This document shows positions 656 to 64,000 of a DNA stretch of 64,000 nucleotides, piece by piece (position 1 is the stretch's first letter; every line of letters starts with the position of its first letter). The notes under the pieces are model-generated. The model was given only the letters and a program-made list of their open reading frames with translations. It did not search any database and had not been told where the DNA came from. Position numbers and translations under genes: made by a program. The DNA is from a phage, in NCBI GenBank assembly GCA_012441205.1, contig GCA_012441205.1_4705.1. One strand, written 5' to 3'.

Positions 656-1084
656 TTATTCATTTTCAATAACTTTAAGATTCGGCGTACCGAGTGTTTT
701 CTTGACCAACGCCTCAGCAACGCGTTTCTCGATGAAATCGGTCGCATTGCTTCCGTCTATCGTGCGCATGTCACCACGGAAGTTATTGAAGACCATAAAC
801 AAGTCGCAACCGTCGATAGGTATCGCAAGATCATAACTGACTTGTGATGCCGTGAAATGGACACCGACGACAACGGCGGGAACGAATTTAACCGCTGCGT
901 TATCTCCTTCTTCTCCGGTTCCGAACGGAAGCTCAACCCGATCACCGATAGAAAATTGCGCAACATCACCAATGATGCGAGTTAATGCTGCTCGTTGCAT
1001 GTCGGCGATATTTTCCTTATTCGCGTCGCAAGGTAGGTCTAAGACTTCTTCCAACGTGAAGAATTTACGATCGAACCAGCTCAT
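656..1084 (-). CDS. hypothetical protein
   Basis: 142-aa ORF in minus-strand gene chain, tightly packed with neighbours. Confidence 0.45.
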   Translation of the reverse strand: MSWFDRKFFTLEEVLDLPCDANKENIADMQRAALTRIIGDVAQFSIGDRVELPFGTGEEGDNAAVKFVPAVVVGVHFTASQVSYDLAIPIDGCDLFMVFNNFRGDMRTIDGSNATDFIEKRVAEALVKKTLGTPNLKVIENE

Positions 1085-1085
1085 G

Positions 1086-1619
1086 TTAAGCTCCTTTCTG
1101 TTTGATTGATGATGTTAACCACGATGATCTTACCGTGAAACCCTCGGACTCGTAGAACGCCTGGGCTTCGTCGTTATCAGCACGAACATCCAGGCCGATA
1201 GAATGCCCGCCGCATCGGTAAGCGATGTTACGTGCTTCGTTCATCAAGGCGTGGCCGATCCCGCGTCCACGGTATTCCGGTTTTACAACAATCGATGTAA
1301 CATCATGAATGCCCATATGGCTCTCTGTATTCACTTCCAAGAGGCCTACCGGTATCGAAGCGATGGTGTCGATCATAACGACCAACTTTGCGGTGTCCGG
1401 TAAACGCTTCTCTAATTCTAAGGCATCGTACTCGCGTTTTAAATCGGGGATATTCTCAAACATAAACGTGGTTGCCCATGCCTCTGATTCTACATCATCG
1501 AGAATACGGTACAGCTCACGAATCTGTCGTTTATGTGGGTAAAGGTGTGGATCGGCAGCCGTTGAGGCGATAACGCAATAGAACGGCCGTTCATTAATAA
1601 CTACTGTTTTGATGCTCAT
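1086..1619 (-). CDS. GNAT family N-acetyltransferase
   Basis: RGRGIGHALM...GLDVRADNDEAQAFYESEGF resembles the acetyl-CoA binding motifs of GNAT enzymes; 4-nt start/stop overlap with upstream gene. Confidence 0.7.
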   Translation of the reverse strand: MSIKTVVINERPFYCVIASTAADPHLYPHKRQIRELYRILDDVESEAWATTFMFENIPDLKREYDALELEKRLPDTAKLVVMIDTIASIPVGLLEVNTESHMGIHDVTSIVVKPEYRGRGIGHALMNEARNIAYRCGGHSIGLDVRADNDEAQAFYESEGFTVRSSWLTSSIKQKGA

Positions 1620-2122
1620 GCTAAAATTCCCTCATTACCTAACAGTCGATTACGGTGACGTCGGTACATTTGACAAAGTGTTGTGATTTGATAAAGTTTG
1701 TTATAACGTAATTCGATACGTTTTTGCACCTCTTTCCATGAAAGTTTATCATATTGCCGATAACGATGGATTTCATTCAACATCCGAAGACGCGTAGGAT
1801 CGGTATTCTTTATTGTTACGAGCTTCACGCGTTGGTATCCGCGCTGCAACCCCGATTCAGAATACGTAATGCCGAACTCATCCTGAATGATAGTAATGAT
1901 CTCCCGCCATCGGCGCTTCTCGCCGTCACGTAAATGGACAACCCGCGATAAGATATCGTTCCGATTACGATGACTCAGTTTAATGTTAAGCATTGAAGCA
2001 ATCGCGCTAATTGCTCTCTGACTCCGCCCTAACGCCTCACCGATCTCTTTCGATGTCATGACGCCAGCGTTTCGACGTATGAATGCGATTTCGGTTGTTG
2101 TGTATTCTTTACCTGCCGCCAT
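1616..2122 (-). CDS. Myb/SANT-like HTH protein, paralogue 1 of 6
   Basis: Shares the N-terminal HTH-like segment (EIGEALGRSQRAIS) and C-terminal W..I...EFGITY pattern with the five downstream ORFs. Confidence 0.5.
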   Translation of the reverse strand: MAAGKEYTTTEIAFIRRNAGVMTSKEIGEALGRSQRAISAIASMLNIKLSHRNRNDILSRVVHLRDGEKRRWREIITIIQDEFGITYSESGLQRGYQRVKLVTIKNTDPTRLRMLNEIHRYRQYDKLSWKEVQKRIELRYNKLYQITTLCQMYRRHRNRLLGNEGILA

Positions 2123-2586
2123 TTCTTACCACGCGTGTTATAATAGTAACGTTGACAAAGATGTGTGTGATGGTACTCCCGTTTGAACTCGACATTGATA
2201 ATGCGAGCAACTTCTCTCCAGCTAACCCCTTCATGTCGAAGTGTCGTGATACGGTCTGAAATTTTGCACCATTCACCAGGATCGTATCGTCGCAGTTTAT
2301 GACGTCGTATTACGGAGGCGACGCTCGCTTTCGAGCGACCAAGATGATTCGACATTCGTTTAATCGAGTATCTATGGATATTATCGCGAATATAGGAAAG
2401 CTCGTTGTCTGTATACGTCGCGTTGGTTCTCGGCGAAGGGAACAATACGTATAACTTATTCTTAATCGCGCTTTCCGTGCGTTGAAACACGGTAACCAGT
2501 TCACTAATCGATGGTCTAGGTATTTGATACGCGTAATTCTCGAGGCGTGAGAGTTCCTCATCTGTCCAGCGGCGGTATTTGCGCAT
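2056..2586 (-). CDS. Myb/SANT-like HTH protein, paralogue 2 of 6
   Basis: Start trimmed to internal ATG (MRKYRRWTDEELSRL); W-x2-EE-x2-L motif. Confidence 0.5.
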   Translation of the reverse strand: MRKYRRWTDEELSRLENYAYQIPRPSISELVTVFQRTESAIKNKLYVLFPSPRTNATYTDNELSYIRDNIHRYSIKRMSNHLGRSKASVASVIRRHKLRRYDPGEWCKISDRITTLRHEGVSWREVARIINVEFKREYHHTHLCQRYYYNTRGKKWRQVKNTQQPKSHSYVETLAS

Positions 2587-3052
2587 GGGCAACTCCTTTG
2601 TTTTTCGTGTAATAACACCAACGTTGATACAACGCATGTTTATTCGTTGTAATCCCAAATTTAACAACAACGTCGTATGTGATAATATTCCAATTTTGGG
2701 TGACGTTAAGTCGTTCCGCGATAATCGCTTCCCGTTCTTGCTTGGTTAACGCACGACGAATTCCATTAAGCCGTATAAACTGACGAACCGAGTCATACGA
2801 ACGGTTTAAATCATACGCAATCTCCCTCAGCGATTTTTGTTTGATTACGGACTTGATGTACGCACGTTCTTCTTCCGTATACGGTCGATGCTTCTGGCGT
2901 TGACGTATTCCCAAACGCCCCAGACACGCGTCGATGCTGGCGTATGTTCGTCCTGTCCGTTGTGCGATTTCATCAATCGTCAGCGGCGTGTTCAAGTACA
3001 TGTGTGTAACATCTTTTAACTCATCGTTACGCCACGGCCGAGGTCGTCCCAT
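2558..3052 (-). CDS. Myb/SANT-like HTH protein, paralogue 3 of 6
   Basis: MGRPRPWRNDELKDV...IAQRTGRTYASIDACLGRL. Confidence 0.5.
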   Translation of the reverse strand: MGRPRPWRNDELKDVTHMYLNTPLTIDEIAQRTGRTYASIDACLGRLGIRQRQKHRPYTEEERAYIKSVIKQKSLREIAYDLNRSYDSVRQFIRLNGIRRALTKQEREAIIAERLNVTQNWNIITYDVVVKFGITTNKHALYQRWCYYTKNKGVAHAQIPPLDR

Positions 3053-3530
3053 CTTGTATCCCTCTTTTCTTTCTATGATGCCACCAACGCTGATAAACAG
3101 CTTGCTTCGTCCGTGTTATGCCAAAATGCGCATTAACCCGTTCAGCAATGTGGTACCAATCCTGCGTTTCTTCTAACAATGCATCAACGAAGGCTATGAA
3201 GATCTTAGTATCATCCTCGCTTAACCGCTTGAAGCCATGGCGGTGTGCTATTGTTCGAATACTGTTTGGATCTCTGTTTAAATCGCGTGCGAGCTGTTTG
3301 TAACTTTTGTGCTTACAGTGTAGTCTGATATGTTCTAATTCATCGACGCTGAAACGTTTATGCGGTTTACGGCGTTCGACGTTTAAGTACCTCAACCTTG
3401 ATTCGATTGCACCGTACGTCGTTTCCATGATTTCCGCGATTTCACGGATTTTTAATTTCGGGCGACGATCGTATAGTTTCAGCAACTGCTCATCGTACTT
3501 ACGATTCCATCGTCGTACTGGGGGTTTCAC
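3027..3530 (-). CDS. Myb/SANT-like HTH protein, paralogue 4 of 6
   Basis: RRWNRKYDEQLLKLY...IAEIMETTYGAIESRLRYL. Confidence 0.5.
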   Translation of the reverse strand: MKPPVRRWNRKYDEQLLKLYDRRPKLKIREIAEIMETTYGAIESRLRYLNVERRKPHKRFSVDELEHIRLHCKHKSYKQLARDLNRDPNSIRTIAHRHGFKRLSEDDTKIFIAFVDALLEETQDWYHIAERVNAHFGITRTKQAVYQRWWHHRKKRGIQDGTTSAVA

Positions 3531-3532
3531 AA

Positions 3533-4012
3533 CTAGATTTCTCCTGTTCTACGCGTTTTTAATGCTTGAGTGTAGTAAAGGGTATGAACACCGCTTAACG
3601 TGTAATGGGTGTTAAATTCGTTATTGATGATATTCTGTATTCTCTCCCAGGTTTTCTTCTCTTTTCTAAGAGTATGTATTCGGTGATAGATCATCTCTCG
3701 ACGTTGCGCTTTGCACGCGATAATACCGTAGCGGTAGCAGAGTTTAGCGATCGCATCCACGCTACGATTGAACATTACCGCGGCTTCTTTCACGCTGTGC
3801 GTCTTGAGATAATCGGCTAACATCACGCGTTCTTCGAAACAACAATAGCGGTGACGCGACGTGAGTTTCCAGCGCTTGCGATTACGGTTAATTCGACCTT
3901 GAACCGAACCTTCCGTTCGGCCAAGTCGTACCGCAATATCTTGCATCGGTATACCGTTTCGGTACAGGGTAATCAACATCGCATCTTCTTCGGGTGTCCA
4001 GTCCTTGACCAT
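3533..4012 (-). CDS. Myb/SANT-like HTH protein, paralogue 5 of 6
   Basis: VKDWTPEEDAMLITLYRNGIPMQDIAVRLGRTEGSVQGRINRNRKRW is a near-canonical Myb repeat pattern. Confidence 0.55.
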   Translation of the reverse strand: MVKDWTPEEDAMLITLYRNGIPMQDIAVRLGRTEGSVQGRINRNRKRWKLTSRHRYCCFEERVMLADYLKTHSVKEAAVMFNRSVDAIAKLCYRYGIIACKAQRREMIYHRIHTLRKEKKTWERIQNIINNEFNTHYTLSGVHTLYYTQALKTRRTGEI

Positions 4013-50556: not shown

Positions 50557-50916
50557 CAATATCTTCAATACGAATCGCTACTTCGTATCCGCAGCATTAC
50601 CTGCAGCTCCTGGTGTTACCAGGATGTTGAGAGTATATCATGTCCATATTCCAAATGGAACGTAGGACTTCCGCGCTGGATCTCGCTTGAGACCACTTAC
50701 TCGTTGAACGTTCTCCTAAAAGGAGCTTCGCTGCTGATTGGACATTGTTACGTACGGTAGGCGTCCCACTAAAGGGATTTTCATTGAAGCCGCGTACATC
50801 CGTTACCTTGTTTCTACCTTATCGGTTCCTCTTACGAGGCGTAACGGCTTTAGCCTATTCCAGCAATTCACGGAATGCATATTCTCCTTTTCAGGAGATA
50901 AGGCCATGGCTCTGGC
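50557..50916 (-). ncRNA. intron 2 (group I-like, ORF-less, 360 nt), paralogue of intron 1
   Basis: 5' exon ends in U, intron ends in G; conserved blocks and covarying hairpins shared with 50932-51281; separates micro-exon from exon 3. Confidence 0.6.
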
Positions 50917-50931
50917 ATCACCGTCAAAGTC
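50917..50931 (-). CDS. RNAP beta-prime micro-exon encoding catalytic DFDGD
   Basis: Minus-strand gactttgacggtgat = D-F-D-G-D, in frame with flanking exons under the proposed junctions. Confidence 0.65.
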
Positions 50932-51281
50932 CACGTATCTTCAGTATGAATCGCTACTTCATACCCGCAGCATTACCTGCAGCTCCTGGTGTTACCAGGA
51001 CGGAGAGATCATCTCATCACCCACGAAGGGTGTTCCGCGCTACCCTCAGCGAATTCGAGGGACATGATCGTTGAACCTTCCACCGATGATCGATGGCTAG
51101 GCTGCTGATTGGACATTGTGCGTTGGGGTGGCATCCTGGTTCAGGACTGTCATTGAAGCCTCCCAACATCCACTCACTTATTTCCGCCTCATCGGCTCCC
51201 ACAAGGGCAGAGTGGCTTTAGCCCGTCTCAGCAATTCACGGAATTCAAGCTCTTCCTTTCGGAAGGCAGGGCCTCATTTGA
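50932..51281 (-). ncRNA. intron 1 (group I-like, ORF-less, 350 nt)
   Basis: Begins right after codon GCU (Ala of ...GYNA) at 51282; ends in G before the micro-exon; paralogous to intron 2. Confidence 0.6.
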
Positions 51282-52532
51282 AGCGTTGTATCCCTTAAGG
51301 ATCATCACGCTTAACCCGATGGTGTTATCCTGCGGATCGCGTTTAACCTTGGTGATTTCAAGACATTGGTTACTGCTTCGGTCAAGTGATGGGTTTCGAA
51401 CAAAGCCACACACAATCCCATCGAACGGTGTATCAGCAATAAGCTCATCGTGCAGCTCGCTCATCATTGGATGATAATTACGGACATGTTCCGCAACGAA
51501 CGCACGTGCTGCTCTTGGCGAATAACCACGATGGAATAACTTGGATTGGATATGTTCTTTATTGGTTAAAGTAAATGGTGCGTATGGGAAATGCAGATGA
51601 TAATAACGATGGTTTGCTGTTATCGAACTGATTACGGTACGCGTGGTGAATGGATGTAATGTACCTAATATGTTTTTACGTGTGATACCTTTCTTCTTAC
51701 CAATGAACTCATCGAAAATTGCTGCGTGGTATTGCAGTAGCTTCAATTGTACTTTCGCCATCCAGTTTTCTTTCTTTCTGGCGCTCAAAGGTGTTGTTGG
51801 GTGATAGATACTATTCAACGTACCGATAGCATCGATCGCACCTTCCATTTTGCTATCTGCATAACGACCGGTTGGCGTATTCTCGATAACGAACATCATG
51901 GCCGCAGGAAAGCTGATATACTGACTGAAGAACTTATCACGATGGATACGGATGAATTCTCGTAGCGTGTCAACTTTCTCCGTGTTCTTCGGTCCACGTA
52001 ACGTAGGTCCTTTATACAAGATCTCCATGATGCGATCGAAGTTCTGTATAAAGCTATTTACGCCACGTCGTATCCCGAATACATCGAATTGCTGCTCCAG
52101 ATAGTTCTTGAGTTCGATGGGTCGTTTTACATTTGGACGGTAACTGGCATCAATGAGCCACGTCATCGTTTCAAAGCTTTTGATATTCAACTCGCTTGCC
52201 AGCACGAGATGGACCAACGGGTTAATGAACGCATCAATTCCTTCAGGAACACGCGCCCAAACCGTCGAACGAATCTCTTGTTCTGCTGGATAGGTTACAA
52301 CCGTTTTACAGTTCGGACACACCGTACCGAGCAGCTCACCACGATTGTAGAAACCACAACCACATTGTGGTGTGATATCCAACGTATCGCTGGAGTAAAC
52401 ACGGGTGATAAAACTGTTTAATTTCTTCTTCTCTTCGACGACTTTTGTATCGTAATCATTCAACAAAATCGGCGTGAAAGGAAGTTCTGCGAGCTGTCTA
52501 TCGAAACTCACGATATCGAGCATGATGGCCAT
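51282..52532 (-). CDS. RNAP beta-prime N-terminal subunit, exon 1
   Basis: Zinc ribbon CGCGFYNRGELLGTVCPNC; GKKKGITRKNILGTLHPFTTRTV (E. coli [23 protein letters not shown]); RNPSLDRSSNQCLE (NRAPTLHRLGIQAFE); LSVMILKGYNA (LHPLVCAAYNA). The ORF-track tail to 51228 is intron read-through. Confidence 0.7.
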
Positions 52533-52624: not shown

Positions 52625-54520
52625 TTAGAACAGGTTGAATGCCCCACCCATGTTGTTAACGCCAACATTCGGACGATCGCTACGTGCGTAGATGTTACCG
52701 GAGATGTTACCCAGACCACGAGCACGTGCTGCCATGTTACCACGAACAGCGGTACCTGCCAGATGCTGGATGTTCTCAGGACGGATGGTGAAGCCAGCAT
52801 CAGCAGCGGCCTCGATCAGCGCCTGCAGTGCTAACGGATCGAAGTCGTAACGCATTGCCCAGCCGGTTTGTTCCCAGCTACCAGACAGAACACGATCAAT
52901 GATTTCGTGACGAGCGACAACACGCTGAGACATCGTCATATCGGTACGGTCGAAGCTGTCTTCCCAAGCTTCTACGGTATCCGGGTTAGTGATGTTCATC
53001 ATGTACAGATCGTCCATATCACGAATATCGTGACGGTGACCATCCTGGTGGTTATAATGACCCAGCGGGATACGGTTACCGGTAGCGTAGACCAGTGGTG
53101 CGCCGTACTGATATTTCTTGCTGAAGCAACCCAGGGTAGTATCATCGAAGGCACGGAAGAGTGCTTTGTAACCTTCGGAGATTTCCCGGACTTCACCTTC
53201 AACTTTGCCCGTATAGATCTTCTCAGCCGCCGGGATCATACGCAGCAGCCAGCTGTATTCGCCTTCTTCCGGTACGTCGATAGAAATCAGCAGAGACGGA
53301 TACAGTACCTGTTGCAGGAACTTGTAAATCTGCTCGTTGGTTTGAGTAGACAGATCCAGCGGTGCGGTAACTTCCGGATCCAGTACCATCGCCAGAGCAC
53401 CCGGGTTATGCGGACCAATACCACGAGCAGCGTTGCTGATTAAAGACTGTGCCCACGCCATACCGCTGTTCAGCGTAGCGATGGTGCCAATCAGACCCAA
53501 CACGAAAGTGTTCGGCGTGAACGCATCCAGCTCCAGCGGGTAAGCGCTGGTCATCACGTAACGCGGTTGGTATTGTACAGTCGGCGGTACCGGATAACCG
53601 TTAACCAGAACAGGGCCTTGGTTGAAGGTCGGGTTCTGCGGGCTGTAGGTCAGGTCAATGTAACCGGTGGTTGCGACCAGACGCTGCTGACTATCGTAAT
53701 CGCTCATCGCTTGACGGATGCGGTTAGAGATAGTTACAGTGATGTCAGAACGCACAGGGTTACCAACAATATCGCTGTCCTGCATACCGCTGGTGTTGTA
53801 CTGAACGCTGCTGATTGGCTGATCGCTTGCCATCATGCCCAGGTTGAACTGCGGCAGACCCAGTTTATCGCCGAGACGGATTTCGATCGCGGTTTGGATT
53901 GCGTTATCTGCAGCAGACAGCAGGGTGGTTGCCAGATGCGCAGATTCAGCGGTGATTTCATTGGTCACCACAGCCAGACCAGCGATACGAGCAGTACCAT
54001 TAGACTTACCACCGATAGCTGCATACATTGCCGCCATGACTTCGTTGATGAACGTACCGTTCAGGTTATCAACCCAGGTACGCGGCACCAGAATGTTACC
54101 ATGCGGGCCTTGTTCTTCACGACGCGGCAGCGGAGCCAAACCGGCAACCAGTGGAAGCACATAACCGAAGAAGTGGTTATGGTCACCAACTTTTGCACCG
54201 CTCATAACAACCAGGGTCGGATACGGTACACTGTATTGGTTAGGATCGACGGTCACCATGATGAAGTCGTCTTTGAATCCTTTATCTTCCAGTTCTTTTT
54301 CCATCAGACGACGGAGATTCAGTACCTGCTCGGAGCCAGTATTACGGCTAATACGACGGCTCAGTGTACGGTTGATCGTACGCATCGTATGAGTTACTTT
54401 AGGCTGGCCAGCAAAATCTGCAGCGGTTTCCAGCGCCTCATCAGCACGTTGTGCGGTGCGGGTTTCAGCTGCACGAATTTCTACATTATCGTTACCGTTA
54501 TTACGTACGTCTAAGCCCAT
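52625..54520 (-). CDS. candidate phage-nucleus shell protein (chimallin-like); otherwise abundant early protein of unknown function
   Basis: 631 aa; own TATATTAC promoter-like motif 70 bp upstream and own terminator; immediately upstream of the beta-prime N-terminal gene; no motif-level confirmation. Confidence 0.4.
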   Translation of the reverse strand: MGLDVRNNGNDNVEIRAAETRTAQRADEALETAADFAGQPKVTHTMRTINRTLSRRISRNTGSEQVLNLRRLMEKELEDKGFKDDFIMVTVDPNQYSVPYPTLVVMSGAKVGDHNHFFGYVLPLVAGLAPLPRREEQGPHGNILVPRTWVDNLNGTFINEVMAAMYAAIGGKSNGTARIAGLAVVTNEITAESAHLATTLLSAADNAIQTAIEIRLGDKLGLPQFNLGMMASDQPISSVQYNTSGMQDSDIVGNPVRSDITVTISNRIRQAMSDYDSQQRLVATTGYIDLTYSPQNPTFNQGPVLVNGYPVPPTVQYQPRYVMTSAYPLELDAFTPNTFVLGLIGTIATLNSGMAWAQSLISNAARGIGPHNPGALAMVLDPEVTAPLDLSTQTNEQIYKFLQQVLYPSLLISIDVPEEGEYSWLLRMIPAAEKIYTGKVEGEVREISEGYKALFRAFDDTTLGCFSKKYQYGAPLVYATGNRIPLGHYNHQDGHRHDIRDMDDLYMMNITNPDTVEAWEDSFDRTDMTMSQRVVARHEIIDRVLSGSWEQTGWAMRYDFDPLALQALIEAAADAGFTIRPENIQHLAGTAVRGNMAARARGLGNISGNIYARSDRPNVGVNNMGGAFNLF

Positions 54521-55935: not shown

Positions 55936-58089
55936 TTACTCTGCGGTTTCTTGCTTCGGTAAATAACTTGCTGCGATGTCTTGGGCTAACAATGTATTGT
56001 TTTTATTCGAGATGAAAATACCATAACTTTCCATTAACGCGTAATACGAACGCACGAGCGTAGAGATCAATCGACGAATATCCATACCTTGAATAAAGAT
56101 ATCAGGAAGCCCGGAGGCTTCGATCACCGGTAATGGTATCGTTAAGTTGCTTATCGTTTTCTTATCGTTACGTACAATCCAATCACGGAAACGTTGTTGT
56201 AACCCTTTATCCTCCCAGGAATCAATCCAATCGTTAAGAAGCGTTTTGTTCTTCGTCGCCAACGGCACACGAACCCCAACATAGGGTGGTTCCTGGCAAT
56301 GGCCGTACGATTGAGCAAACACCTCTTCCCACATATCGTAAGACTGTTTCGTTACTGCAACATGCGGTTTCACTTTAACACGTGTTAAGAAATCAGGATC
56401 ACCACGTTTCATGGACTCAACGATTTCGTTTTCTAACGAGATAATATCGTCAAGAACCAATCGAATGCTGATCTTCTCGTTACGTAACAGCTTATCCATG
56501 ATACCACACATCATGCGTTCAACACGTTTGACGATCATTTTTGGTGCTGACGCATCGCGCATAACCGGACCTTTCAATTCCAGCTTCGGTGGATTGATGG
56601 GAACCCCTTCACGCATGGTCATGTATCCGTAATAGTTTTTACCCATCGAGGTTAACGACAGAATCAAGAACATATATTCGTTCTTCATTTCCATTACGTA
56701 CATATGCTCTTTCGCTACACCGATATTACCAGAACACATCGCCATCAGATGAACCGTAATCTGCGTAACCAGATAGATAAGCGTATTTGCTAAGCGCGTC
56801 GAAATTGGATTGATCTCCATATTTCCAAATCGCCACTGAACCCACTCCTGGCAGGTAAACACCGTCGAGTCGGTATCAGACAACACACCCACTTCACGGA
56901 TTGCTGACGGAAAAGCATAAACACCGGCCGGTTGGTTCTCGGTACGCCATAACGCCTTAATTAAATCAGCGTAGCTTTGGATGCGTTGCAACATTAATTT
57001 TGTCGTTGCTGCAGTAAGACGATAACCAAGTTCATTTCCTTTTTCCAGAGCTACGTAAATCGCTTCCCCGTTCAAGAACTCCGTGCATTGTGCCGTAATC
57101 CAAGCGACCGTGTTGTTATCCATGGAAGCAATAATGGCTTTAGCCTCTTCCATCGTTTCAACAGGTTCGGATGCCAGCTCGCATAACGAATCAAGAAAAT
57201 CTCGAACAAATTCAGGATTAAGCTCACGTAACGAGTACAGGTTATTGCTATACATGTAGCAGGCGCGTTCCAGTGGGGTTAAACCGGTAATTAACTCCCG
57301 GATAGTCAGTTCTTTCTCTGGGTCGAAAGTATACCGATGCAAGCATTTCGATACGTTAGCCCAAACCTCTTCCGGCGTAGGGTAATGTAGTTTGTATTTT
57401 ACCATTACCTGTTCAATGGCTTTACGATCGCTGTTGCGGACAATACTCACGATGTTTTCAATTGCGATATCACAATCGTAATAATGGAAATTGCCCGCAA
57501 GGAAGCGTTCGTTGTTCGCATTGGCTGAACCTGAAGCACAGCGACACGTTGTCGTTAAACTTGGATGCGCAATTGGATTATAAAAAGGGTTAAACTTGGA
57601 CGCCTGGGTTCCTGACAAACTGTTGTTATCTAACTTGGTGTTGGTTTGTCGTTTATCGTGTAACTCAGCTTCATCTTTACGTCCGTGTGCTTGCGCTATC
57701 GACATTTGTTTCTTTTGTTTCTTACGCAACTTACCGTTTTCAACCGCAAAGTCGCTTAGCACACTGGAACGTGTTTCACGTGGATAACAGTTAGCCCACA
57801 CCGGCGTGATAATTAAATTATTTTCTTTAATATCATTGAAGTATTGGCTGAACATGATGACTTCTTTTTCTCGATTTCCTTCGGTGCGCTGTGTTAATAC
57901 AAGGCAGTCGGGATCAACCATCCCGTATTTTCCACCAGGACGAACCGTATCAAGGACAAACTGCAACGCTTCCTGCTGTGATATCCCACGCATGCGCATT
58001 AAGAACAGGGTATAATCCTGTACCGCTTCTTTGGTCATATCCAACGTACGGCCATATCCGTTTTCATCGTAAAAGAACGGATTTTCCAT
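55936..58089 (-). CDS. hypothetical large protein
   Basis: 717-aa ORF; no motif recognised by eye. Confidence 0.5.
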   Translation of the reverse strand: MENPFFYDENGYGRTLDMTKEAVQDYTLFLMRMRGISQQEALQFVLDTVRPGGKYGMVDPDCLVLTQRTEGNREKEVIMFSQYFNDIKENNLIITPVWANCYPRETRSSVLSDFAVENGKLRKKQKKQMSIAQAHGRKDEAELHDKRQTNTKLDNNSLSGTQASKFNPFYNPIAHPSLTTTCRCASGSANANNERFLAGNFHYYDCDIAIENIVSIVRNSDRKAIEQVMVKYKLHYPTPEEVWANVSKCLHRYTFDPEKELTIRELITGLTPLERACYMYSNNLYSLRELNPEFVRDFLDSLCELASEPVETMEEAKAIIASMDNNTVAWITAQCTEFLNGEAIYVALEKGNELGYRLTAATTKLMLQRIQSYADLIKALWRTENQPAGVYAFPSAIREVGVLSDTDSTVFTCQEWVQWRFGNMEINPISTRLANTLIYLVTQITVHLMAMCSGNIGVAKEHMYVMEMKNEYMFLILSLTSMGKNYYGYMTMREGVPINPPKLELKGPVMRDASAPKMIVKRVERMMCGIMDKLLRNEKISIRLVLDDIISLENEIVESMKRGDPDFLTRVKVKPHVAVTKQSYDMWEEVFAQSYGHCQEPPYVGVRVPLATKNKTLLNDWIDSWEDKGLQQRFRDWIVRNDKKTISNLTIPLPVIEASGLPDIFIQGMDIRRLISTLVRSYYALMESYGIFISNKNNTLLAQDIAASYLPKQETAE

Positions 58090-60846: not shown

Positions 60847-61774
60847 TTCCTGTTCTCGACTTAGTATGCCGATGTCTGCGTGGACGCTGGACTCGAACCG
60901 GTCTAAAAGGACCCGAAGAACGTGCACCTTGTCGATGTATTTCACCGTTATCCAAGAAAGCGGTTGCCACCGACTCAGCATCCATCCGGTACTCGGGAAC
61001 CCCAAACTCATATAGTACGGGTTGCACCGGACCGAAGACGGAGCGACGTTGTTTAAATCGTTCCTTAAGGGCAAGGCCTTGTTTAATATAAACGGGTTCA
61101 TTGGCGAGTTGTTCCGCTTTTCGTTTTGCGTGAGCCAATCGAAGTTCTTCCAATTGCCCAAGCCATTCAAATTGTTCATCTGTTAGCTCCTGGGGACGTT
61201 CAACAATCGCGCCAGACGGGCAGATATTGATCGTAATGTTAATTGACGGCATCGCCATCACTCGAGGATTACTATTACGTACGCGGACAACGTGTTCGGT
61301 TGCTGATTTACGATCGACGCAATACTCTGTTTCTTGGAACTCAAATGCTTTTAACGGTGTTGGTTTTGTTTGACGTTTAGGAACGCGGCCAAGATCGACA
61401 ATATAGGCATAATCGCACACACGTTCTATTCCGTAAATACGGTTATCCGACCAGTTCTTACCAAACAGCTTATTGTGGTGATAAGACAGATATTCGGTTA
61501 CCATACCCTGGACAACATCGAAGTCTTCTCGAAATTCAGGTTGGTACCAAATCGGACCGAGAATATCTGCGAACGATTCATGACGATATCGAGGATCATG
61601 TCGAGTCCAGGTCATTCTCTGATTAAGATCGAAATCCACCAACAACTCGGTTAATTGCAATTTTTCCTTCGGAGAAAGCTGGCGTTGATGATGCAAACTC
61701 AGGCAATCGATAAGCGGTAATGAAACCCACGATGCTAATGTGTACAAATCGATCCTGGCTAATCTCTTGGTCAT
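60797..61774 (-). CDS. hypothetical protein
   Basis: 325-aa ORF; the Arg-rich C-terminal tail may be read-through. Confidence 0.4.
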   Translation of the reverse strand: MTKRLARIDLYTLASWVSLPLIDCLSLHHQRQLSPKEKLQLTELLVDFDLNQRMTWTRHDPRYRHESFADILGPIWYQPEFREDFDVVQGMVTEYLSYHHNKLFGKNWSDNRIYGIERVCDYAYIVDLGRVPKRQTKPTPLKAFEFQETEYCVDRKSATEHVVRVRNSNPRVMAMPSINITINICPSGAIVERPQELTDEQFEWLGQLEELRLAHAKRKAEQLANEPVYIKQGLALKERFKQRRSVFGPVQPVLYEFGVPEYRMDAESVATAFLDNGEIHRQGARSSGPFRPVRVQRPRRHRHTKSRTGNDDVSRDMDRSHYRTY

Positions 61775-61865
61775 ACTCTTTTCCTAAGTCCCCATTGTTT
61801 ATACACACGATATCTGGGAATAGTTAAAATATACGGCGTAAAACGAAGCAGGAGAGTTTCTGACG

Positions 61866-62186
61866 TCATTTTCTCCCTCTTCGAATACCACCGATACCTC
61901 TTTCGTCTAAGACGTCCCAGGCACGCTTTATTTCATCCTCTGTTGCTCTGGTATCTGGAGGGACAACCATAACACAGTCGTGGAATGGCCAATGTGTAGG
62001 TCTGGGGTTAGCGAACAAATCATCCCATTCAAATGTCCATTCTTTCTTTGAGCGGTTGTAGTAGAACGTAAGATACGTATTGGTGTATGCTAGATAACCG
62101 TGCATAACCTCAATATTCTTACGATCCAGCCGTTCCTGATTCCAATCGTTAAACCGCTTTCTTATTTTCTCCCACCATTTTCCCAT
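61866..62186 (-). CDS. hypothetical protein
   Basis: 106-aa ORF. Confidence 0.45.
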   Translation of the reverse strand: MGKWWEKIRKRFNDWNQERLDRKNIEVMHGYLAYTNTYLTFYYNRSKKEWTFEWDDLFANPRPTHWPFHDCVMVVPPDTRATEDEIKRAWDVLDERGIGGIRRGRK

Positions 62187-62201
62187 GCTTTCTCCTACAC
62201 G

Positions 62202-62230
62202 GCATAAAAGCCTGCCCCGAAGGACAGGCT
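62202..62230 (-). terminator. GC hairpin + TTTATGC-type terminator
   Basis: gcataaaagcctgcc-ccgaag-gacaggct downstream of 62240..62440. Confidence 0.4.
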
Positions 62231-62239
62231 CGATAGAAC

Positions 62240-62440
62240 TTAACGACCATCCAATTTCAATGAAGGATGGTTGACGATATGTGCGTGTTTTGCTGGGTCA
62301 TATAGCTGATATGGAAAATAGCCATGCCATTGACGGCCTTGGCATTTCGTACACAGGAACTGACCAACACCTTGTCGATTCTCGTAAGCGAGTTCGGTAC
62401 TATCAACATGACCGCAACGTTCGCAGATAAACAGCGACAT
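62240..62440 (-). CDS. small zinc-ribbon protein
   Basis: 66 aa with CERCGH...CTKCQ. Confidence 0.45.
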   Translation of the reverse strand: MSLFICERCGHVDSTELAYENRQGVGQFLCTKCQGRQWHGYFPYQLYDPAKHAHIVNHPSLKLDGR

Positions 62441-62477
62441 AGCGCATCCCCATTCACTTGAACCTTTTGGTTCGGCA

Positions 62478-63458
62478 TTAGAAAAGCAAGAAACCGCTAT
62501 TCTTCGCTTCCGCTACAGTTTCGTCACCAACTTTCGGCGCTTGTTGACGTGCGTTACGATGTTCGATGTAACGTTTCGCTTCGTCCGCGATCTGTTTGAT
62601 AATACCCCCTAAACGATCGGTACTTAAAACAAACGACGTCGCTTCACGAATTGGGCTGCTTTCAGGCACAAAACCATCGCAGCTGTAAATAGCGCTAACG
62701 CCCATGACTTTTGTCGCGTCTTTCGGATAAAGCGTACAGAAAGCAATCGGGCTATCGTTCTCTTTCGTCCAATCGTATCCCATGAACGTATTCAGTTCGG
62801 TGATCGTTGGTTCCAAACCGGTAACACGTGGATGGTTTAAGAAGTTTTCCAGGTCGGCGCTGTCAAGACGACGGTTCTCGCCAGAAAACAGAACACAAAG
62901 CTGGCTAATAACAACCTGCACGTCCAGGTTGACATCCTGCTCCGATTTCCCATTTTCGCCATTCATGTGATAGCTAACAATCACTGGACGTTTCAACCCT
63001 TCTGCAGCCGCCATCAGTCCTTTGAAGGTGCGATCGGCGTTGATCGTTTGACGCTCGTCATCGAACGAGGCAACGATGCAACACACCACACGTTCACCAC
63101 GTTCCAGCAGGTTAGCAACCAACGCAGGACCTGCAACAGAACCTGAACCACCGCTCAGACTAAAGACCACGATATTAAATTTACCTGGCGTATGCTTATT
63201 CAGAATACCCGGGATTTGTGAACAGATCAGTTCAGCGTTCTCATCACGCTTCTTACCAGAACCGTCTAACTCACGACCGGCTACATCTTTAAAGATGTAA
63301 ATATGATCGTCACCCAGTGTGCTATCGCGTAGGTTAGCGCGGCTGGTATCGACATACGTCATGCTGTGTAATCCTTTCGCGACTTCGCCTTCAAATGCTG
63401 AGCCGATTTCGCCACCACAACCACCGACAGCCCAAATATGTACTTGGTTCTCTTGCAT
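62478..63458 (-). CDS. phuZ: tubulin/FtsZ-family GTPase (PhuZ-like phage tubulin)
   Basis: T1-loop-like HIWAVGGCGGEIGSAF (G-x-G-x2-G) and T4 signature SLSGGSGSVAGPALVA (GGxxGxGxAP); 326 aa, typical of phage tubulins. Confidence 0.7.
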   Translation of the reverse strand: MQENQVHIWAVGGCGGEIGSAFEGEVAKGLHSMTYVDTSRANLRDSTLGDDHIYIFKDVAGRELDGSGKKRDENAELICSQIPGILNKHTPGKFNIVVFSLSGGSGSVAGPALVANLLERGERVVCCIVASFDDERQTINADRTFKGLMAAAEGLKRPVIVSYHMNGENGKSEQDVNLDVQVVISQLCVLFSGENRRLDSADLENFLNHPRVTGLEPTITELNTFMGYDWTKENDSPIAFCTLYPKDATKVMGVSAIYSCDGFVPESSPIREATSFVLSTDRLGGIIKQIADEAKRYIEHRNARQQAPKVGDETVAEAKNSGFLLF

Positions 63459-63522
63459 GTGAACTCCTAACTTAATATGTATTTAACGTACAATGAATCT
63501 TTCTTTGCTAAAGGGGTGACCC

Positions 63523-64000
63523 ATGGGTGCTATTGACTACAGTGTAGATCGTATCTGTCGTACAATACCGGCAGATATCCTACAGTATTGCTATATCGAT
63601 CGTTACGACTGGCGTAATCGCTATCCTCGTTCCGTAGAAGACATCATTACCGATTGGGTAATCCGTAAACGGGTTATCGGCGACATCGATATCTACGGGG
63701 GACTACAAACCGTTATTCCCCTTGATGATGCAGGTGTCACAATCGAAGAAGTCACCATTAACTGTTATGTTTTCCACATTCCGTTGGAAGCCACACAGGG
63801 ACGTTATATCACGTCCGCATTATCCATTATTTCAGGGAGCGTGAACAACTACGGAATAAACTATAACGGGCAATGGGGCGCTTTCAACCAAACCCAATTT
63901 CAACGTCAGCTTTGTGGGTGGAACCCCGCAAGCAACACGTTACAGCAAGGGATGAACGCGTTCGGTCCCATGAACGTTCTTAGTACAGCCAACGTTGATA
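63523..64000 (+). CDS. hypothetical protein (5' part; continues past window end)
   Basis: ATG at 63523 preceded by AAAGGGG; open frame to nt 64000; not in ORF track because no stop in window. Confidence 0.45.
   Translation, partial: MGAIDYSVDRICRTIPADILQYCYIDRYDWRNRYPRSVEDIITDWVIRKRVIGDIDIYGGLQTVIPLDDAGVTIEEVTINCYVFHIPLEATQGRYITSALSIISGSVNNYGINYNGQWGAFNQTQFQRQLCGWNPASNTLQQGMNAFGPMNVLSTANVD

Follow-up and report, generated by a model that had tools for sequence, protein, structure and literature searches.

PhuZ of phiKZ, 201phi2-1 and PhiPA3 forms a bipolar spindle that both centers and rotates the phage nucleus, whereas PhuZ of the Goslar type forms a vortex that only rotates it (PMC9891218, PMC12908238). 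Goslar PhuZ was called gp201 in Birkholz 2022; it also carries the identifier Goslar_00201, and its RefSeq entry, HOV27_gp234, is named 'tubulin PhuZ'. As a GFP fusion, the protein polymerizes above a critical concentration, and in Goslar infection it forms a vortex-like array around the phage nucleus that extends to the membrane (PMC9891218). The direction in which the nucleus rotates follows the handedness of this array (PMC9891218). When Asp202 was changed to Ala to block GTP hydrolysis, PhuZ assembled at much lower expression and made no vortex, and the mutant acted as a dominant negative, lowering the proportion of rotating nuclei from 97% to 29% (PMC9891218). Work on Goslar PhuZ has been reviewed (PMC12908238, PMC10299810). 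PhuZ is accessory: about one third of chimalliviruses lack it, and phiKZ tolerates its deletion (PMC12908238, PMC10299810).

We analyzed a 64,000-nucleotide stretch of phage DNA (contig GCA_012441205.1_4705.1; hereafter the window) in which a first-pass annotation had proposed a PhuZ-like GTPase of the tubulin/FtsZ family. The ORF listing has this ORF as described, on the minus strand at 62478..63458, with an ATG start and 326 codons' worth of product (326 aa). A ribosome-binding site, AGGAG (63464..63468, minus strand), can be read from the sequence 5 nt 5' of the ATG. The product is the ortholog of Goslar PhuZ (HOV27_gp234). The two proteins are of equal length and identical at 324 of 326 residues (99.4%), differing only by A59V and E229D. 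Between the two genes there are 22 nucleotide differences, 20 synonymous and 2 non-synonymous, and the dN/dS of 0.027 against Goslar indicates purifying selection on phuZ. The two substitutions probably have no effect; V59 was absent from the 9 other Goslar-type PhuZ variants sampled. The ORF almost certainly encodes PhuZ, a GTPase of the tubulin/FtsZ superfamily, in an enterobacterial jumbo phage of the Goslar type that forms a nucleus (Chimalliviridae). Such a PhuZ is already known, as a 99.4%-identical protein has been annotated, characterized experimentally and solved structurally. Because this near-identical Goslar protein has been studied in cells, by live imaging and mutagenesis, and its structure solved, we regard PhuZ of the window as an ordinary finding.

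Structural and family databases agree on this assignment. In a PDB sequence search, the protein matched 9pm9 and 9pmk (E 1.6e-219), cryo-EM entries for Goslar PhuZ deposited as 'Tubulin/FtsZ GTPase domain-containing protein', as well as phiKZ PhuZ (3zbp, E 8.7e-29) and the 201phi2-1 PhuZ structures 3r4v and 3j5v (E about 6e-15; 5.8e-15 for 3r4v). A literature search for a structural paper on the Goslar PhuZ filament or PDB 9pm9 found none and returned only a benchmarking preprint that names 9pm9 among cryo-EM structures. A search with tblastn placed PhuZ homologs in 173 phage records. The records listed are all of jumbo phages longer than 200 kb, and outside Goslar the identity does not exceed about 34%.

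A profile search for the Tubulin/FtsZ GTPase family had been proposed as a check. PHROG 4733, 'tubulin PhuZ', spans residues 1-323 of 326 (E 3.2e-68), while the Pfam Tubulin/FtsZ GTPase domain PF00091 matches residues 9-151 with 29.6 bits (E 1.1e-6) and does not reach its gathering cut-off of 33. To place this score we used an alignment and profile of 13 sequences, comprising the window protein and 12 annotated homologs from phages of Erwinia, Burkholderia, Pseudomonas, Serratia, Ralstonia, Aeromonas, Salmonella, Vibrio and Klebsiella. PF00091 was found at E ≤0.01 in 12 of these 13 proteins, with a best E of only 1e-7; a sub-threshold score appears to be typical of PhuZ. Superfamily membership therefore rests on the PhuZ profile search, which reaches TubZ, FtsZ and CetZ, and not on PF00091. 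Against solved structures, the profile matched PhuZ entries at 1e-113 to 1e-75, TubZ of Clostridium phage c-st at 1e-18 over nearly its full length, M. jannaschii FtsZ at 8e-6 and CetZ at 8e-5. Matches to BtubA (E 0.01) and gamma-tubulin (E 0.1) were weak. Together with the 99.4% identity to Goslar PhuZ and the matches to solved PhuZ structures, these results bear out the proposed PhuZ-like, tubulin/FtsZ-family product.

The single-sequence AlphaFold2 model of PhuZ (mean pLDDT 39, pTM 0.41) was too poor for fold comparison. We infer the two-domain tubulin/FtsZ fold through homology to 3zbp and 3r4v and through the near-identical 9pm9 and 9pmk. Phage-encoded members of the superfamily also include TubZ of the Clostridium botulinum phage c-st (PDB 3v3t, 4xcq). 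FtsZ, CetZ and tubulin (PF00091) have T1 and T4 of the GTPase domain in register with PhuZ but are very distant from it (profile E 8e-6 to 0.1), and their C-terminal half and cellular role differ.

The two motifs on which the PhuZ proposal was based are in place. The glycine-rich nucleotide-binding T1 loop, AVGGCGGEIGSAF, occupies residues 10-22 (63393..63431, minus strand) and is marked by alignment conservation, with G12 invariant and G13 and G15 nearly invariant across the 13 homologs. The T4 tubulin signature, SGGSGSVAGPAL, occupies residues 102-113 (63120..63155, minus strand) within the PF00091 match, and its G103 and G106 are invariant in the same alignment. Invariant residues also mark the T3 loop DGSGK (G66 and G68), the T5 loop (N140) and the T7-type catalytic motif DSADLEN (D199 and D202), which alignment conservation places at residues 199-205 (62844..62864, minus strand). 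Asp202 is the residue that was changed to Ala in Goslar PhuZ (PMC9891218).

We used hhalign to set the PhuZ profile against a single E. coli FtsZ sequence; the resulting match (22% probability, E 9.7e-4) serves for motif register and not for homology. In this register, PhuZ GGCGGEIG (residues 12-19) lies opposite FtsZ GGGGGNAV, T1 also being set against GVGGGGGN, and PhuZ GGSGSVAGP (residues 103-111) lies opposite FtsZ GGGTGTGAAP. PhuZ of phiKZ (gp39), 201phi2-1 (gp59) and PhiPA3 (gp28) has in common with the window protein its family, the T1, T3, T4, T5 and T7 residues and the C-terminal tail motif. Like the window phage, these three are chimallin-encoding jumbo phages.

The alignment also delimits an extended C-terminal tail, residues about 297-326 (62481..62570, minus strand), which ends in NSGFLLF. 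G322 is nearly invariant in the tail and is followed by hydrophobic residues in 13 of 13 homologs. In 201phi2-1 PhuZ, the tail contacts neighboring subunits in the filament. By analogy, the tail of the window PhuZ may have a filament-contact role. The phage tubulin C-terminal domain PF22334 had no match to the window PhuZ even at E up to 1, although it matches 9 of the 13 aligned homologs (best E 2.9e-43). This difference suggests that the C-terminal half of Goslar-type PhuZ is unusually divergent within the family.

The genome around phuZ is that of a close relative of Goslar. The 2-kb stretch around the gene has 97.5% DNA identity to Escherichia phage vB_EcoM_Goslar (237,307 bp) and the last 25 kb of the window 97.3%; matches of both stretches in the phage collection were to Goslar only. 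The window is collinear with Goslar except for one replaced segment. It encodes chimallin, the nuclear shell protein (52625..54520, minus strand), which corresponds to Goslar gp246 and matches PHROG 4795 'nuclear shell protein' (E 4.9e-52). Chimallin would enclose the compartment that PhuZ filaments act upon. A divergent family-B DNA polymerase, like chimallin a hallmark gene of the phage family, lies at 55936..58089 (PF20286, E 8.6e-204). Because of the identity and collinearity with Goslar, chimallin and the family-B polymerase, the sequence identifies the window as part of a Goslar-type chimallivirus, whose DNA was most likely sequenced together with that of an enterobacterial isolate. This phuZ, then, is encoded by a chimallin-encoding jumbo phage, about 97% identical and collinear with the 237-kb Goslar.

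Elsewhere in the window, we observed two tandem group I intron-like elements (50609..51292, minus strand) that are about 78% identical to each other. They follow the first exon of a phage RNA polymerase beta-subunit gene (ORF 51228..52532), and this exon ORF matches positions 1-417 of 478 in PHROG 2987. Their Rfam RF00028 scores, 30.4 and 30.1 bits (E about 5e-5), are below the gathering score of 50. The corresponding Goslar segment is 1496 nt long and contains a single, stronger intron match (46.9 bits) along with the HNH homing endonuclease gp186; that of the window measures only 406 nt and lacks an endonuclease ORF.

Directly downstream of phuZ on the minus strand, after a 37-nt gap, lies a 66-aa zinc-ribbon-like ORF (62240..62440). 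The first-pass annotation had noted this small gene and its downstream position, which is right for the minus strand. It had also called the product a zinc ribbon. The protein has two CxxC motifs, at residues 6-9 and 30-33; all Pfam zinc-ribbon matches fall below their cut-offs, the best being Elf1-type (E 9e-4; 19.7 bits against a cut-off of 29.8). The protein is the ortholog of Goslar gp235, a hypothetical protein, with 100% amino acid identity over residues 1-65.

An intrinsic-terminator-like hairpin follows the zinc-ribbon gene on the minus strand (62202..62231, the hairpin itself at 62208..62231). It has a 10-bp stem and a UUCG loop followed by UUUUAU, and RNAfold gives it -18.0 kcal/mol. 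We found it by reading and folding the sequence; a simple consensus terminator scan of 61700..64000 missed it because the T run is short. The intergenic sequence flanking the hairpin is identical to that of Goslar, whose annotation has a terminator at the equivalent position. The hairpin 3' of the zinc-ribbon gene, together with the separate ribosome-binding site of the gene that follows, suggests that phuZ and the zinc-ribbon gene are a hairpin-terminated two-gene unit and appear to be co-transcribed. Goslar has the same gene order (divergent gp233, phuZ, zinc-ribbon gp235 and terminator), and its two intergenic regions downstream of phuZ are identical to those of the window.

Zinc-ribbon homologs were found in 5 other jumbo phages (LucasX, pPa_SNUABM_DT01, Xoo-sp14, pEa_SNUABM_54 and Xanthomonas phage RTH11), and we compared neighborhoods in the first four. 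In Xanthomonas phage LucasX the homolog lies directly downstream of a PhuZ homolog (PhuZ 34% identical). The homolog of Pseudomonas phage pPa_SNUABM_DT01 shares the strand of PhuZ and is found 1.8 kb downstream of it. Neither Xoo-sp14 nor pEa_SNUABM_54 has a PhuZ gene within 3.5 kb of the homolog. The coordinates of zinc-ribbon/PhuZ neighborhoods in other phages are 2452..3689 (L015) and 744..3698 (L018). The shared neighborhood is a weak hint of a functional link, which conserved block order explains equally well. Gene order would also be the support for a dedicated PhuZ partner, with the 66-aa protein, for example, nucleating or anchoring filaments or modulating their geometry, a role we consider unlikely. 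If it did hold, such a partner might help explain why the Goslar type makes a vortex instead of a bipolar spindle, a choice whose controlling factors a 2025 review describes as unknown (PMC12908238).

How PhuZ of the window would work can be outlined from the Goslar protein. GTP-bound monomers would polymerize head to tail, with T1-T4 of each subunit forming a GTPase site that the T7 loop (Asp199, Asp202) of its neighbor completes. A site completed between subunits would yield dynamic filaments, and the extended C-terminal tail may bridge neighboring subunits. The filaments would surround the chimallin-shelled nucleus as a vortex, push on the cell membrane and rotate the nucleus. Rotation is thought to spread arriving capsids over the nuclear surface for DNA packaging, and midcell positioning would not be a task of PhuZ in this lineage. 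Published work on a protein that differs by 2 residues is the source for filament formation, the vortex, nucleus rotation and the D202A effect; our own analysis shows what the protein is and which family it belongs to, the conservation of its motifs, purifying selection on the gene and its genomic surroundings.

The first-pass annotation had linked phage tubulins to centering of the replication compartment in nucleus-forming jumbo phages. The presence of chimallin in the window agrees with a nucleus, but centering does not belong to this lineage, in which Goslar makes a vortex. Centering is the role of PhuZ in phiKZ-like Pseudomonas phages and in Erwinia phage RAY. Nevertheless, the window protein is of the same family as PhuZ of phiKZ, 201phi2-1 and PhiPA3, and centering is the best-known PhuZ function (PMC12908238, PMC10299810), so it could be proposed to build a bipolar spindle that centers the nucleus at midcell as in those phages. 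We consider this very improbable. The 99.4%-identical Goslar PhuZ forms a vortex around a nucleus that is not enriched at midcell (PMC9891218; PMC12908238), and D202A lowers rotation of the Goslar nucleus while leaving its position unchanged (PMC9891218; reviewed in PMC12908238). Furthermore, the window protein shares only about 23-27% of residues with its spindle-forming counterparts from phiKZ and PhiPA3 in the 13-sequence alignment, and the published identity between Goslar PhuZ and 201phi2-1 gp59 is 26.96% (PMC9891218). By analogy with Goslar, the window PhuZ would rotate rather than center the phage nucleus.

For segregation of a plasmid-like prophage, TubZ relies on a centromere and the adaptor TubR; the TubR proteins known are of the winged-helix type and not zinc ribbons. 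The profile match to c-st TubZ (E 1e-18), and a small, putatively nucleic-acid-binding protein that is apparently co-transcribed with phuZ and whose gene adjoins the PhuZ gene in LucasX as well, would suit a TubZ-type DNA-segregation motor (type III partition) with the zinc-ribbon protein as its TubR-like DNA-binding adaptor. However, the E-values of the PhuZ matches are tens of orders of magnitude lower than that for TubZ, the phage encodes a chimallin nucleus shell, and the adjacent small gene is zinc-ribbon-like, with no TubR recognizable by Pfam. The zinc-ribbon homologs that have no PhuZ gene within 3.5 kb, in Xoo-sp14 and pEa_SNUABM_54, also argue against a dedicated adaptor of this kind. 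In contrast to c-st TubZ, the window PhuZ belongs to a nucleus-forming jumbo phage. A partition motor is thus extremely unlikely, and we rejected this identity on the far stronger PhuZ matches and the presence of chimallin. The glycine-rich motifs could in principle be coincidental features of an unrelated fold, given a PF00091 score below the gathering threshold and a structure model of low confidence (pLDDT 39). We assign this a negligible probability and rejected it as well, because the protein has full-length homology to three PhuZ proteins solved by crystallography or cryo-EM, matches PHROG 4733 at 3.2e-68, and yields a profile that reaches TubZ and FtsZ with the motifs in register. At the level of sequence, these PHROG, PDB and profile matches exclude the chance-motif outcome that had been named as a refutation of the PhuZ proposal.

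The region upstream of PhuZ separates it from a divergently transcribed neighbor on the plus strand (63523..64000, cut by the window end), the ortholog of Goslar gp233 (PHROG 3179). The intergenic region (63459..63522) is 64 nt long and AT-rich, differs from that of Goslar at 2 of 64 positions and presumably holds one or more promoters. A sigma-70 promoter scan of 61700..64000 gave 4 sites against 3.9 in shuffled sequence and thus found no promoter. Chimalliviruses use their own RNA polymerases, so the missing sigma-70 excess is unsurprising. In LucasX, the gp233 homolog is also divergent and upstream of the PhuZ homolog, and in Erwinia phage Ea35-70 the gp233 and PhuZ homologs have consecutive locus tags (Ea357_206/207).

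Public databases already contain the exact 326-aa PhuZ under the label 'hypothetical protein'; these entries derive from assemblies of E. coli O157 and Salmonella, with contigs of up to 239,671 bp. Its 90%-identity cluster has 111 members, which also come from Shigella sonnei, Shigella flexneri and metagenomes. Megablast against complete RefSeq E. coli genomes gave no match. Evidently, Goslar-type lytic jumbo phages accompany enterobacterial isolates into their assemblies, where annotation of the phages is incomplete. The 'hypothetical protein' records in E. coli O157, Salmonella and Shigella assemblies could be re-annotated as PhuZ. The many natural Goslar-type variants also already provide a modest collection of substitutions that a phage tubulin tolerates.

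One Goslar-type variant, P0002, is an NCBI cluster representative from a 7,174-bp contig and carries G106A and S107A within T4 (GGSGS to GGSAA). Apart from these two changes, it resembles variant P0003. The T4 change in P0002 may be an error of sequencing, or the record may represent an inactive allele or an engineered construct.
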